DNA from: Candidatus Thorarchaeota archaeon | GTDB lineage: Archaea > Asgardarchaeota > Heimdallarchaeia > Hodarchaeales > Hodarchaeaceae | Length of the DNA: 32,000 nucleotides | Direction of reading: 5' to 3' | Assembly (NCBI GenBank): GCA_048882505.1 | Contig: JBHLRO010000019.1 | Location: forward strand, 30,001-62,000 | Shown here: in pieces, positions 9,214 to 32,000 of the stretch | How the letters are laid out: each line of letters begins with the position of its first letter | Numbering within the stretch: position 1 is the first letter of the stretch | Notes under the pieces: model-generated | The model's database searches: none | Seen by the model: only the letters and a program-made list of their open reading frames with translations | What the model was told of the DNA's origin: nothing | Translations under genes and position numbers: made by a program

Positions 9214-10150
9214 TTAAGGAAAAAGCCAGGCCAATGGAGGATTTGATTTATCGTGGCTTTTTGTACAGGGAATAGAGCTATAACGCAATGATCGAATCAG
9301 TTCGAACAGCAAATCAGGTACACAAGGGTATCCAACTATGAGATGCGCCCCGTAATGCGTGAATGTTTCAATCCGTGTCTTGAAATTCCATGAAGACAGC
9401 ACGTAATGTTGAAAGCGAGAACGTAATATCCGTTGAGCCACTTGAGGTAACCTCTCCCACTCTACTGAAAGAGTACGGGGATTGATTTTTTCCTGCTTGA
9501 GTTCAAGCAAAATTGGTTTTCGTCGTAAAAGATACTTCACAACTATCCTTACGGCCTCCTCTTCAGGAAGGAGCTGGGCCATCGGCATATATACTGCATA
9601 TGGCCCCGGGAGATGGTTGGAAAGGACAGCTCGAGGATCGCCATAGAGGAGGAATGGTATTATGGAGCCGTAATGTTTGGCTACCTTACCAATAAGCTTG
9701 GATGACAGATTTTCTCCCCCGAGAAAGAGACATTCGTCGGTCAGAGCTCTCACTCTAGTAAGAATGTTATGAAATGCTTTAGCTACTGGGATTTTTGGGT
9801 CAACAGACGAGTAGTCTGGGGAACCTGCTACAATATTAAACATCAGATTGGGATATTTGTCAGCGATTCGGAGATAGTTTTCCAGTAGGAAATTTCGGTT
9901 TTTATAAAACTCTGCACTCCGAACAGACACTGTCAGCACAAGACGATTCCGAATTTGACCTAAAATAACCCCAAGCTGCTCAGGAGTCAAGAGCCATTCT
10001 TGGCCTTCATAATCAAGAAAAATAAATTGATGATATTGATCCGCATATATGATGGTTTCTAAATACTCCCGCGTTGTATGGAAATCTGAGCGTTTAAGCG
10101 CAATTCCTGTTATAGTCGGCCCACTCTTAGAGAGGAACGTGATCCCTCAT
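9214..10150 (-). CDS. Luciferase-like/DUF7388-like TIM-barrel protein; coding frame extends 52 codons upstream of track start 9990
   Basis: Motifs GIALK, LDYEG, VSVRSAEF, VAGSPDY, AVYMP, YLLRRKP and IVGYP line up in order with the haloarchaeal 'luciferase-like' family as I recall it. GIALK and LDYEG lie upstream of TTG 9990. The family name is from memory and needs an HMM check. Confidence 0.6.
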
Positions 10151-10315
10151 TTGTCTCACACCGATATGAATTGCACCCCCCCAGTTTTAAGAACCCTAAA
10201 ACAGGTTAACATTTGTAATTTGCTTTAAAAGAACTTATAACGCATATTTTCTTCATTTTCCATAATCTTTAAGGAGTTTGGAATTAGTCCGCGCTCATTG
10301 ATCTATAATACATCC

Positions 10316-11053
10316 TTAAGAATTATTTGGGGAAAAAATTTCGAATATATTTATACCTTGAAGTCCCAACAACAGCCAAATCGCATAAACCAGGCTTAAA
10401 GTTGCTATTGATAGATTTATGACCCGTGTTACCCGTTTTTGTCCGAATCTTTTTGCTGGATAGTTAACTGAGATACCATATCCGATCATTCCCATAATAA
10501 CGCCAACTGTGAAGAGTAGAACACCAAAAAGAATACCAAGAAGATCTTGTATGCCCAGAGTTAATGTAAATAGTAATAGTAGCTCATCATTGCTCGCTAT
10601 GCCATGGATGACGCCAATTCCAACCATGGTGCCGTGTTCGCGTTGTGAAGACGTTGAAAGATGAACATGCAGGTGAGTATGCTCTTTCGCGTCTGCCACA
10701 TCTGTTACACCATGCGAATGCCTATGAAAATGTATTAGATTGAATTCCCAGGCGATTGTAAACAGGGCAATGACTATAAGCATAACAGGGACAAGTAATT
10801 CTAGATTTGCGAGCATGGGGAGAAAAATACTCTCACGAAAGATAAACAAGACAATAGTTAGCACGGTAGCCGTAGCCATATGACCTAAAGCCCAAGATAC
10901 GCTCAAGGAAATCGTTTTCCTCGTTGTCTGGGAATGAGTCAAGAGGCCAGAGACCGCCACAAGATGGTCCGCATCAAAAGCATGTTTTACACCTAAAAGT
11001 ATTGCGATGACCAGTAATCCAAGTATATATGATGTATCTAACGTGCTTTCCAT
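10316..11053 (-). CDS. High-affinity nickel/cobalt transporter (NiCoT/HoxN/UreH-like)
   Basis: GVKHAFDADHL signature, His-rich loop (HFHRHSHG...EHTHLHVH), GVIHGIA second motif, multiple TM segments. Confidence 0.85.
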   Translation of the reverse strand: MESTLDTSYILGLLVIAILLGVKHAFDADHLVAVSGLLTHSQTTRKTISLSVSWALGHMATATVLTIVLFIFRESIFLPMLANLELLVPVMLIVIALFTIAWEFNLIHFHRHSHGVTDVADAKEHTHLHVHLSTSSQREHGTMVGIGVIHGIASNDELLLLFTLTLGIQDLLGILFGVLLFTVGVIMGMIGYGISVNYPAKRFGQKRVTRVINLSIATLSLVYAIWLLLGLQGINIFEIFSPNNS

Positions 11054-11175
11054 TCCTCCAGCATTTAGTTGTCTTAACTAGTCTATGCCACCTCTTATAG
11101 AAATCGATTATATATCTATTTTCGTAGATTTCGTTCTATCTTCGAACAAAATCGGACTGGCTAGTAGCCGTGAAA

Positions 11176-29644: not shown

Positions 29645-30206
29645 GAATTTCGACGAATTTTAGGACGGGCAATTGATCGAATTTAGATGATTCGAATTGT
29701 TAGCTCTTCTTCTAAGATAACGTTATTATTTTTTCTTAATTCTGGTGAATTGAATTACTTTTTTATCTATCCCATCTGGGAACCAACGCCGAAAAAGCAC
29801 ACCACCTTCTTATGATGGTAGGTTTTAACCGATTTTATTGCATAACCCTCCTGGATACCAGGCTTATTTTTGAATTTTTAATTCTTTAAATGTACAAGCA
29901 CGAATGAAAACACTTGGACTCTCTAATCTTTTAACATCATATGTTTTGTCTATAAAAAATATCAAAGGGCTTGAATAATTCGTTTATTTCACAACCACTC
30001 ATCATTCCACTTACTCCTCTCTTTTTAATTTCCTTTCCATCTACTTAGAGTTTCTTTTGATCTTTTTCTGCTTCATTTTTAGCCATAATTTATAAAACCA
30101 TGTAAAGGTGGCGAAATTATCATTTGGATTGTAATATCATTAATATTAACGTGTTTAAGACAAGCTTATGGTCTGCTGCTCTATATTTTATGGAGGATCA
30201 CCCGAG

Positions 30207-31178
30207 TTGATCTGTCAGGTATGTGGTAATTCAAAGGGAAACAATGAACTTCAAGTTTCTGAAATGATGTTTGGATTTAGAGATAAGTTTAGCTACTGGG
30301 AATGTTCAAATTGTGGGGGGCTCCAAATAGCAGAAATTCCAGAGAATTTAGGTAGATATTATCCTCCGAATTATTATTCATTTGAGCAAAAAAACCCCAA
30401 AAAACGGAACTTGATTCGGTATAGACTTGGTATCAGGAGAGACAGGTTTGCTCTGTTCGGACGAGGATTTCTAGGAAGATTGTTGTATATGATATCTCCT
30501 AGAGAGCAATTTAGACGTATAAGTAAATTGGGCATTAAGTTAAACTATGAATCCAAGGTTTTAGACGTTGGCTGTGGATCAGGAGCCTTTTTACGCAGAC
30601 TTAAAGAATTAGGTCTCAAAGAATTAATAGGCATAGATCCATTTCTGCCAGGTGAAGCACACGATAAAGGATTAAAACTTCTTAAAAAGACAATTTTTGA
30701 CTTTGATGACCAAGATAACTTTGATTTTATACGTTTTCATCATACACTTGAACATATGCCCGATCAAGCGGATGTAATTTTAAAAACATCAAAATTATTA
30801 TCACCCACAGGTTCTTGTATGGTAAGCATGCCCGTGAAAACGAAGTATATCTGGAAACGTTATGGAATACATTGGGTCTCTATTGACGCTCCACGGCACC
30901 TCTTCGTACACACCATAAAGAGTTTCAAAAATTTGGTGGAAAAAACGGATTTAAGAATAAGGCAAATCGAATTTGATTCTTCAATCTTCCAATTTTGGGC
31001 CAGTGAGCAATATAAACAAGATATCCCTCTTTTTGCCGAAAATTCCTATATGAAAAATCCCAATAAAAGCATTTTCAGCGAAAACGAAATTTTTGAATTT
31101 GAGACCCTGACGCAACAACTAAATGCTGACGGCCAAGGAGACCAAGCAACATTCCATCTAAAGAAAACGACAAATTAA
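30207..31178 (+). CDS. Class I SAM methyltransferase with N-terminal Zn-binding CxxC pairs (probable sugar methyltransferase); likely TTG start 30207 (track 30168)
   Basis: CQVC...CSNC, LDVGCGSG, FHHTLEH, DAPRHL; GGAGG upstream of TTG 30207. Confidence 0.85.
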   Translation: MICQVCGNSKGNNELQVSEMMFGFRDKFSYWECSNCGGLQIAEIPENLGRYYPPNYYSFEQKNPKKRNLIRYRLGIRRDRFALFGRGFLGRLLYMISPREQFRRISKLGIKLNYESKVLDVGCGSGAFLRRLKELGLKELIGIDPFLPGEAHDKGLKLLKKTIFDFDDQDNFDFIRFHHTLEHMPDQADVILKTSKLLSPTGSCMVSMPVKTKYIWKRYGIHWVSIDAPRHLFVHTIKSFKNLVEKTDLRIRQIEFDSSIFQFWASEQYKQDIPLFAENSYMKNPNKSIFSENEIFEFETLTQQLNADGQGDQATFHLKKTTN

Positions 31179-31246
31179 GAATAGGTTAGCCTCTTCAGTG
31201 GTTTTAAATTTCATCCCAATTTACCCTTGTTCGTGAGGAATGCAAC

Positions 31247-32000
31247 ATAACGGAACCAATTAGGAAGAAATATCGACGGTTCTTGACTGGGGGATTTTCA
31301 CAAGTAATGGTCTCACGAGCATTTTCTTTCATTTATATTGTAATCTTTGCTAGGATAGTAGCTAGGAATATCATGGATCAGATCATTATTTTAGCTGCGG
31401 GATATCAGATCATTGCTGAAATTACTATCTTTAGCATGAGGTATGTAGGGCCACAACGGGCATTATCGGCACCTAATGAGTCTCTGAGCGCGAAAATCCG
31501 ACATAACGCAGTAATCTTCATGTTAATTGTCTCGGCACCATTGTCAGTTATATTGTCTCTACCAGTCCTTTTTTATGTAACTGAAACGCCAAATTTGGAG
31601 CTATATTTGATCTATGCCATGTCATCCTTATTAATGATATTAAAAGAAACCGAGGTTATGTTTGCTCGGTCATCTTTGGTTGTTGAGCGGGCATTATTAT
31701 TGAACACGCTATACTCAGTGTTAAATTCAGTTTTAGTGCCTTTATTTTATTATATCACTCCTACATTGAAGAGTGTCTTGTGGGCATGGAACATTGCCCT
31801 TCTAATCACAGTTATATTGGGTATAAAGCCCTTATTGTTAGTTTTGAAACTGAAGATATTTGATTTAAAGGTTATACAGAACTTATTGCGTTTTGGATTT
31901 CCTATTTTCATCATTAGCGTACCAAGGCCGGTCATATTAAATCTGAATAACTTAATTATCTTTGAAAATCTTGAAGAAGGTGCTACAAGCGTTTTTTATT
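31247..32000 (+). CDS. Oligosaccharide flippase (Wzx/RfbX, MOP superfamily), partial at the right edge; absent from ORF track; start uncertain
   Basis: Frame is open from 31208 to the window end: RKKYRRFLTGGFSQVMVSRAFSFIYIVIFARIV...multiple TM segments...QNLLRFGFPIF. Confidence 0.75.
   Translation, partial: MTEPIRKKYRRFLTGGFSQVMVSRAFSFIYIVIFARIVARNIMDQIIILAAGYQIIAEITIFSMRYVGPQRALSAPNESLSAKIRHNAVIFMLIVSAPLSVILSLPVLFYVTETPNLELYLIYAMSSLLMILKETEVMFARSSLVVERALLLNTLYSVLNSVLVPLFYYITPTLKSVLWAWNIALLITVILGIKPLLLVLKLKIFDLKVIQNLLRFGFPIFIISVPRPVILNLNNLIIFENLEEGATSVFY

Follow-up and report, generated by a model that had tools for sequence, protein, structure and literature searches.

Four genes without a canonical start codon

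The DNA analysed here, called the window throughout, is a stretch of 32,000 nucleotides (nt) from the Asgard archaeal genome G000 (C19:30001-62000; the genome comprises 4.3 Mb in 83 contigs, with 41% GC). Database homologues carry the labels Hodarchaeota or Hodarchaeum. The window contains four genes with conserved coding sequence upstream of their first in-frame ATG, GTG or TTG codon, namely a DUF7388-like gene (site 1), a Dus-like TIM-barrel gene (site 2), a GT2 glycosyltransferase gene (site 3), and a Wzx-like flippase gene (site 4). A first-pass annotation had drawn attention to these genes, and both the orthologue alignments and the Pfam GT2 domain agree with it. Its coordinates for the ATC, ATT and ATA codons (collectively ATH), for the short out-of-frame open reading frames (mini-ORFs), and for TTG 29672 all proved correct when the sequence was read again. 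The frames are open from positions 10146, 14065, 29659, and 31208 for sites 1 to 4, respectively, resulting in extensions of 52, 12, 59, and 25 codons; from the upstream stop to the conserved N-terminus, none of the four frames has a canonical start. At sites 1, 2, and 4, the alignment with orthologues in the genus begins within residues 1-6 of the open frame. The 3′ tail of the G000 16S rRNA (...GGATCACCTCCT) gives the Shine-Dalgarno (SD) template AGGAGGTGATC. SD spacing is expressed as aligned spacing, that is, the number of nucleotides from the last G of AGGAGG to the start codon, and it peaks at 7-10 nt for first-ATG starts in G000. The features of the four sites are compiled in Table 1.

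Table 1. Features at the four sites, in window coordinates (CDS, coding sequence; ORF, open reading frame; SD distances as aligned spacing)
Feature	Position	Strand	Basis
Site 1, DUF7388-like gene, proposed CDS from ACG	9214..10140	-	Conservation; purifying selection versus G016
Site 1, candidate main starts, ACG 10140-10138 and ATC 10143-10141	10138..10143	-	ACG homologous to the ATG/GTG of relatives
Site 1, upstream ORF, ATG AGG GAT CAC GTT CCT CTC TAA (M R D H V P L stop)	10127..10150	-	Present in 19/19 comparable loci
Site 1, SD-like GGTG, 10 nt to the upstream-ORF ATG	10159..10162	-	Sequence; orthologues have GAGGT or AGGAG at 6-9 nt
Site 2, Dus-like TIM-barrel gene, proposed CDS from ATT 14068	14068..14835	+	ATT kept in G016; first in-frame ATG at 14101
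Site 2, SD AGGTGA, containing the CofD stop TGA 14062-14064 and the out-of-frame GTG 14061	14059..14064	+	16S rRNA tail; same AGGTGA in G016
Site 2, mini-ORF GTG...TAG (8 codons, TAG 14085-14087), judged incidental	14061..14087	+	GTG lies in the SD core; absent in TGA-ATG orthologues
Site 3, GT2 glycosyltransferase gene, proposed CDS from ATC 29629	28775..29629	-	Pfam; homologues; first in-frame ATG at 29482
Site 3, SD AGGAGG, 9 nt before ATC	29639..29644	-	Sequence; GGAGG retained at this position in L104
Site 3, out-of-frame TTG mini-ORF spanning ATC, judged incidental	29619..29672	-	Equally frequent at ordinary ATG starts
Site 4, Wzx-like flippase gene, proposed CDS from ATA 31247, continuing past the window end	31247..32000	+	G007 and G017 orthologues; first canonical codon TTG 31283
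Site 4, SD GAGGA, 8 nt to ATA 31247 and only 1 nt to ATG 31240	31235..31239	+	Sequence
Site 4, out-of-frame ATG mini-ORF (7 codons), judged incidental	31240..31263	+	Abuts the SD; absent in G007 and G017 orthologues

The public gene call for site 1 begins at TTG 9990, the first canonical codon, and yields a product of 258 amino acids that has lost about 50 conserved residues. We compared the gene with its counterpart in G016, the closest relative included (DNA ~88% identical, syntenic with window positions 1-14816 only). Substitutions were distributed 20:16:86 over the three codon positions, with 72 synonymous and 30 nonsynonymous codon changes, and the gene is under purifying selection. The leader upstream of TTG 9990 showed a distribution of 2:3:7. 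An ATH codon had been proposed near the start of each of the four extensions. The positions are right, but at site 1 the codon homologous to the start of the relatives is ACG 10140-10138, one codon after the ATC. The nearest outgroup, L099, reads GGG ATC ATG TTC CTC where G000 and G016 read GGG ATC ACG TTC CTC, the sole difference at this codon being ATG versus ACG. A body-frame ATG or GTG directly precedes the TTC codon in L099, L027, L044, L100, L042, and L043, and the annotated homologues P0007-P0011 begin with MFL or VFL.

The Dus-like gene at site 2 follows a gene identified by Pfam as CofD. The junction reads AGG-TGA-CAA-ATT in G000 and AGG-TGA-TTC-ATT in G016; hence, the ATT is retained, whereas the preceding codon has fully diverged. 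Ten other species of the genus have TGA-ATG at this place, followed by the same N-[PR]-S-I-L-A-A-M sequence, and the ATT lies within one codon of that ATG. Although the Dus-like ORFs of G000 and G016 are only 63% identical, both are intact, and substitutions of 66:45:134 by codon position place it under purifying selection. The synteny between the two genomes breaks at the 3′ end of this gene, whose 63% identity compares with ~88% DNA identity in the flanks.

At site 3, the Pfam GT2 match sets in at model position 3 and residue 18 of the open frame; 42 residues separate this point from the first ATG. The public product of 235 amino acids misses the conserved N-terminal part. The Hodarchaeota homologue L104 (75% identical) retains GGAGG followed by TTA-ATC, and the homologue P0019 reads ...N-L-I-I-P-P-E-I-A-A-V-I. 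The 84%-identical P0018 has been called from an internal methionine, as expected if it likewise lacks a canonical start. No canonical start was found near the site 3 SD in any frame, and no orthologue with ATG at the aligned codon was detected. The flippase at site 4 has an orthologue in G007 that reads GAGGAG...ATA and lacks an ATG; its ATA aligns exactly with ATA 31247. The orthologue in G017 reads GAGGAG-cta-ATG, with the ATG one codon upstream of the aligned ATA. The motif E-x-[IL]-x-x-K-Y-[RK]-R-F is conserved upstream of TTG 31283. The comparison of orthologues revealed a canonical codon opposite the near-cognate one at site 1, and an ATG within one codon of it at sites 2 and 4.

Translation could instead begin at the first canonical codons (TTG 9990, ATG 14101, ATG 29482, and TTG 31283), leaving the upstream similarity as untranslated sequence or a relic. 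This is the choice of the public gene callers, with the 258- and 235-residue products mentioned above. We regard it as improbable. It would deprive the site 1 protein of 50 conserved residues and strip the GT2 domain at site 3 of its first 42 residues. The four downstream codons all lack an SD, the site 1 leader evolves like coding sequence, and the homologous residues are translated in orthologues with ATG starts.

Near-cognate codons behind SD motifs across the genome

The genome-wide analysis was based on ~3000 ORFs that have a coding-like codon usage and a length of 150 codons or more. Leader positions were defined as those lying 3 or more codons before the first canonical start (ATG, GTG or TTG), and an SD was counted if it comprised at least 5 nt at a spacing of 7-10. 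In-frame CTG, ACG, ATT, ATC, and ATA codons in the leaders were preceded by an SD in 80 of 2348 cases (3.4%), compared with 1.8% for the other in-frame leader codons (odds ratio 1.93, p = 9e-7). For the same five codons, the values were 31/2315 (1.3%) in out-of-frame position 1 and 24/1682 (1.4%) in out-of-frame position 2, both at or below their own background. The characteristic spacing peak appeared for in-frame near-cognate codons only (8.4 vs 3-5 per 1000 per nt). Per codon, an SD accompanied 5.9% of CTG, 3.8% of ACG, 3.1% of ATT, 2.9% of ATA, and 2.7% of ATC codons. G000 thus has an excess of SD-positioned CTG, ACG, and ATH candidate starts corresponding to at least about 40-50 genes, or about 1.5%. 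The initial proposal that ATH codons initiate unusually often in this lineage is borne out insofar as such codons are SD-positioned and either conserved or replaced by ATG in relatives. The in-frame enrichment extends to CTG and ACG, however, and the set of codons is wider than proposed, with CTG strongest, followed by ACG and then by ATT, ATA, and ATC. A leader substitution test against G016 gave a coding-like pattern for leaders of at least 25 codons (20:16:58), but several of the short ORFs were probably antisense shadows, and the test was not used for counting.

Eleven candidates could be mapped on 984 kb of G016. The codon was identical in ten of them, and in the remaining one it was ATG behind the same SD; control codons had changed in 18 of 64 cases. 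These data also bear on assembly or sequencing errors, by which false indels or base changes would have created genes that only seem to lack a start. Removal of one base between the upstream ATG or GTG and the body would "repair" three of the four sites, and a C6 run adjoins the start at site 3. Nevertheless, we give this explanation next to no weight. The features recur in independent assemblies, that is, in G016 for sites 1 and 2, in L104 for site 3, in G007 for site 4, and in 19 loci for the site 1 upstream ORF; ten of the eleven further candidates are the same in G016, and site 3 is without a canonical start near its SD in any frame. The upstream extensions are themselves conserved in orthologues.

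When genes were compared by homology with 800 kb of the closed genome G009, 10 of 415 gene pairs were flagged, among which gpmA, PriL, and site 2 are clear cases. The reverse test, with G009 ORFs against G000, was dominated by antisense shadow ORFs and N runs and was discarded. The gpmA gene for phosphoglycerate mutase (C9:16835-17647, + strand) has no canonical start over 88 codons, and its ATC-ATT behind GGAGAGGAG aligns with the ATG in G009 (M-Y-K-I-V-F-L-R-H-G-E-S). The gene for the primase large subunit PriL (C2:318081-319391, + strand) has an apparent CTG start 3 nt past a tiny in-frame upstream ORF, ATG-AAG-GGA-TAA. Both the CTG and the tiny ORF are conserved in G016, and the aligned codon in G009 is TTG.

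Loss of the start codon is a common first step of gene decay, and the variable glycosylation island that harbours sites 3 and 4 is absent from G016 at this locus. The four genes might accordingly be taken for decaying pseudogenes. This is highly improbable, since the ORFs are of full length without internal stops, the frames at sites 1 and 2 have stayed intact with a third-position bias across the G000/G016 split, and the essential genes gpmA and PriL have the same kind of start.

The first-pass annotation had also found it suggestive that an out-of-frame ATG or GTG lies 7 nt before the ATH codon at three sites, and it had considered early +1 frameshifting as a shared mechanism. Neither idea was supported. 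Before 259 SD-positioned ATG starts, a spanning out-of-frame ATG/GTG/TTG mini-ORF was present in 36% of the cases as +1-type and in 36% as -1-type, mostly 4-11 nt upstream; at the near-cognate candidates, the values were 35% and 28%. The pattern is common because the SD core holds a GTG, as exemplified by site 2, where the GTG 7 nt upstream is part of the core AGGTGA itself. At site 3, the TTG 29672 lies 43 nt upstream of the ATC (offset 1 mod 3). The out-of-frame starts at sites 2 and 4 abut or overlap the SD and are not conserved, and SD-led out-of-frame mini-ORFs overlapping start-less leaders exhibited no +1 bias across the genome (25 "+1" vs 20 "-1").

From the observed lack of canonical starts, the conservation, the SD geometry, the enrichment statistics, and the purifying selection, we infer initiation at near-cognate codons, namely ATT 14068, ATC 29629, ATA 31247, and, in combination with the upstream ORF at site 1, ACG 10140 or the adjacent ATC 10143. 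On the basis of the sequence comparisons, we consider it fairly likely that this is the correct explanation and that it forms part of a genome-wide habit. The initiator tRNA would read the near-cognate codons of four intact, functional genes. At sites 2 to 4, a good SD motif would position the weak codon (6, 9, and 8 nt, respectively). As the CofD stop is located 3 nt upstream of ATT 14068, translational coupling to CofD termination would be possible at site 2. At site 1, the SD-led upstream ORF probably recruits ribosomes, and the main ORF would be reached either by alternative start selection or by reinitiation once the upstream ORF has been terminated. The four genes would then exemplify a habit of G000, a member of a Heimdallarchaeial lineage, that includes gpmA (ATC or the adjacent ATT) and PriL (CTG).

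Several observations weigh against near-cognate initiation. The spacing of 6 nt at site 2 is at the edge of the 7-10 optimum, and at site 1 the spacing is poor, with 4 nt for ACG or 1 nt for ATC. Moreover, 8 of the 19 members of the site 1 family are without a canonical or near-cognate codon at the start position (TAG in six, GCT, and GTC) or have such a codon only one position away, and because of these eight, no single initiation site fits every orthologue. Finally, the same enrichment test did not reach significance in the smaller, underpowered samples of G016 (13/494 vs 9/735) and G009 (7/540 vs 8/815). Near-cognate codons at sites 1 and 4 were seen in several other members of the genus.

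A conserved upstream ORF in the DUF7388-like family

Among the four sites, only site 1 has a truly conserved out-of-frame upstream ORF with its own SD and ATG. For this site, 19 comparable loci were available, comprising genus orthologues, paralogues in G000 and G016, and metagenome contigs. All 19 have an SD (GAGGT, AGGAG or GGTG) followed, generally at a spacing of 6-9 nt, by an out-of-frame ATG, which is replaced by GTG in two loci and by ATT in one. The upstream ORF has 6-10 codons with the pattern M-W/R-D/E-x-V-P...stop, and it ends 8-20 nt past the homologous body start. In G000, the main frame is +1 relative to the upstream ORF, which overlaps the main start and stops 11 nt past the ACG. 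A second family (f2), read by eye and not part of the 19, displays a leader of this kind in two loci, of which one is complete and the other truncated at its contig end. Two Hodarchaeum-type loci have a different upstream ORF that is shorter and in another frame.

The codon preceding the invariant TTC is ATG in three of the 19 loci, GTG in one, ACG in five (including G000 and G016), TAG in six, and GCG, GCT, ACA, and GTC in one each. It is GTG in both f2 loci, so that, with these two counted, 11 of the 15 non-TAG loci have ATG, GTG or ACG at the start position. All six TAG loci and the GTC locus contain a CTG two codons after the start position. The TAG loci (L030-L033, L045, and L046) form a clade of DUF7388-like paralogues in which the TAG lies in the body frame and is always followed by TTC CTG. 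Flags for in-frame TAG codons raised by the genome searches were traced to these six loci and not to pyrrolysine; a tRNA-Pyl was not found, the tRNA detection being incomplete. Within the overlap, the W and D/E codons evolve as codons of the upstream ORF (GAT, GAC, and GAA variants). The pattern at the TTC is that of a body codon, with free variation of the nucleotide preceding it. As the conservation of V-P is largely explained by the overlapping F-L codons of the body frame, only W-D is clearly constrained as a peptide.

These features invite the idea of a programmed +1 frameshift, in which ribosomes start at the out-of-frame ATG or GTG and shift into the body frame at or before the stop of the mini-ORF. 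The SD-led +1 out-of-frame start is present at site 1 in 19 of 19 loci whatever the body codon, even in the six TAG loci, and within ~2 codons, selection seems to leave the upstream-ORF frame (W and D/E codons with third-position changes) and to act on the body frame (TTC invariant, the nucleotide before it variable). Even so, we judge such a frameshift to be unlikely, if a genuine alternative at site 1. No slippery or shift motif is conserved across the 19 loci: the codon before the upstream-ORF stop is AAC, AGC, ATC, AAA, CTC, GAA, CAA, CCT or yet another, the stop is TGA, TAA or TAG, and the length of the ORF varies as well. Consensus folding of the site 1 leader produced only a 4-bp stem without covariation. 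At least six homologues have their own body-frame ATG or GTG, in agreement with the annotated proteins beginning with MFL or VFL, and the MWD leader is fused in frame in none of the homologues. At sites 2 and 4, the ATG or GTG lies inside or against the SD, so that the SD would be unusable for it, and the genome-wide mini-ORF counts given above argue in the same direction.

Near-cognate initiation at site 1 most likely takes the form of a weak ACG (or ATC) start inside the conserved upstream ORF, and direct initiation or reinitiation appears likelier than a +1 frameshift. We infer a role of the upstream ORF in this process from its conservation. A more far-reaching, speculative possibility, which we rate as unlikely, is that the conserved MWDxVP ORF represents a recoding or sensing device for the DUF7388-like family of Hodarchaeales-type Asgard archaea. 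It could bring ribosomes into the body frame by a programmed +1 frameshift that needs no classical slippery site; alternatively, it could encode a leader peptide that senses a metabolite and thereby controls reinitiation at the weak start. In either case, it would act atop a relaxed stringency of start selection (CUG > ACG > AUH). This order resembles the eukaryotic one. To our knowledge, no conserved recoding or leader-peptide element has previously been described in Asgard archaea.

About 40 nt upstream of the upstream-ORF ATG, at window positions 10190-10215 (- strand), a conserved element with the consensus GAAAATTAnGGTTCTTATGAAG (here TTTTAGGGTTCTTAAAAC; alignment A1, columns 14-33) is located ahead of the SD in most members of the family. 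A promoter with a TFB recognition element and a TATA box is a possible interpretation, in which case the upstream-ORF AUG would be the first AUG of a short leader. The DUF7388-like protein itself had no sequence match in the PDB and no usable Atlas neighbour.

Known systems and neighbouring features

Near-cognate starts are known from bacteria and archaea, for example, the AUU codons of E. coli infC and pcnB, and NCBI translation table 11 allows rare CTG, ATT, ATC, and ATA starts. In E. coli, they are limited to a handful of genes (~0.1%). The candidates described here resemble these cases in that a single-base variant of AUG follows an SD, orthologues have AUG, and the genes are under purifying selection. 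They differ in number, with at least ~40-50 SD-positioned cases (~1.5%), in the inclusion of housekeeping genes, and in the order CTG > ACG > ATH. Unlike for infC, no autoregulatory logic is evident.

Site 1 is also reminiscent of leader peptides and upstream ORFs such as TnaC, the MAGDIS upstream ORF of S-adenosylmethionine decarboxylase (AdoMetDC), and the cat/cmlA leaders. The upstream ORF is very short, has a conserved M-W-D-x-V-P sequence and its own strong SD, and overlaps the start of the gene that it would regulate. It differs from them in that no known effector, arrest or attenuation structure is associated with it and only W-D is clearly constrained. Programmed +1 frameshifts include prfB (CUU-UGA with an upstream SD) in bacteria, antizyme (UCC-UGA) in eukaryotes, and Ty1 (CUU-AGG) in yeast. 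As in these examples, a short SD-led ORF ends at site 1 while the body continues in the +1 frame, and an SD-like GGGAT lies a few nucleotides before the possible shift zone. In contrast to them, neither a shift codon nor a stop context is conserved, several species have their own ATG or GTG, and the genome lacks a corresponding bias.

Termination-reinitiation coupling has been documented in archaea and bacteria (Huber et al., 2019, PMC6728339; PMC10666635). In the published cases, the restart codon is canonical, with an overlap of -4/-1 nt or a very short gap. Site 2 (TGA-CAA-ATT with a 3-nt gap, TGA-ATG in orthologues), site 1 (stop 8-20 nt from the main start), and PriL (ATG-AAG-GGA-TAA-ACA-CTG) are similar in arrangement. 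A restart at ACG, ATT or CTG and a dedicated upstream ORF of 6-10 codons, however, are not described in those papers and are candidate features here. Our literature searches retrieved no report of widespread non-canonical starts, frameshifting or recoding in Asgard archaea, and nothing on DUF7388 or DUF7388 leaders.

Standard gene callers truncate genes of this type, and ~1.5% or more of the G000 genes, gpmA and PriL included, may be mis-started. Asgard archaea carry a set of initiation factors of the eukaryotic type. If a lineage accepts CUG, ACG, and AUH as starts behind an SD, it would be a natural system for studying the evolution of start-codon stringency, and the upstream ORF shared throughout the DUF7388-like family is a candidate element of translational control among uncultured Asgard archaea. 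Archaeal initiation factor 1 (aIF1, SUI1) is identical in G000 (C26:34047-34256, - strand) and G016 (C9:51280-51489). Compared with the 17 other genus members (19 genomes), it has an insertion of 3 residues at the N-terminus, and its last helix shows the changes L>R, A/S/V>P, and P>E. We rejected aIF1 as an explanation for the weak starts, since both loops that monitor the start codon are unchanged. The initiator tRNA looks normal (A1:U72, CAU); tRNA detection in the G000 metagenome-assembled genome is incomplete.

Sites 3 and 4 are part of a glycosylation island of ~26 kb with a GC content of 35-37%, which covers window positions 14816-32000, continues to C19:70653, and is absent from the syntenic place in G016. 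It encodes GT1, GT2, and GT4 glycosyltransferases, an epimerase, WbqC, an asparagine synthase, and the flippase. Scans of the window yielded no Rfam match and no tRNA. Two long methyltransferase-type ORFs (N6_N4_Mtase/DUF1156 and N6_Mtase/Eco57I-like) occupy window positions 3265-7735 (- strand), where they lie in different frames and share 47 nt. They have the appearance of two distinct genes from a restriction-modification or BREX-like module, not of one frameshifted gene.

Three further loci of G000 were noted. An S-adenosylmethionine-dependent methyltransferase gene (C2:317242-317847, - strand) encodes a conserved D-I-Y-R-Q-Y-C ahead of its first ATG and lacks an SD-positioned near-cognate codon. 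Its leader, GAGGTGA followed by GTG AAC AAC CTT AGT TGA, holds a Ty1/EST3-like CUU-AGU that is not kept in G016 (ATT AGT). At C71:1026 (+ strand), ~50 nt upstream of the ATG are highly conserved between G000 and G009 (protein pair ~83% identical), with a stop inside in G009. This leader, which contains GGAGGG, may represent a conserved 5′ element without coding function. Lastly, an ORF on C51 (- strand, reverse-strand offset 1489) contains an in-frame TGA whose flanks are conserved on both sides in G000 and G009. It may be a selenoprotein gene, and ARAGORN predicted a tRNA-SeC at C16:65699-65815.

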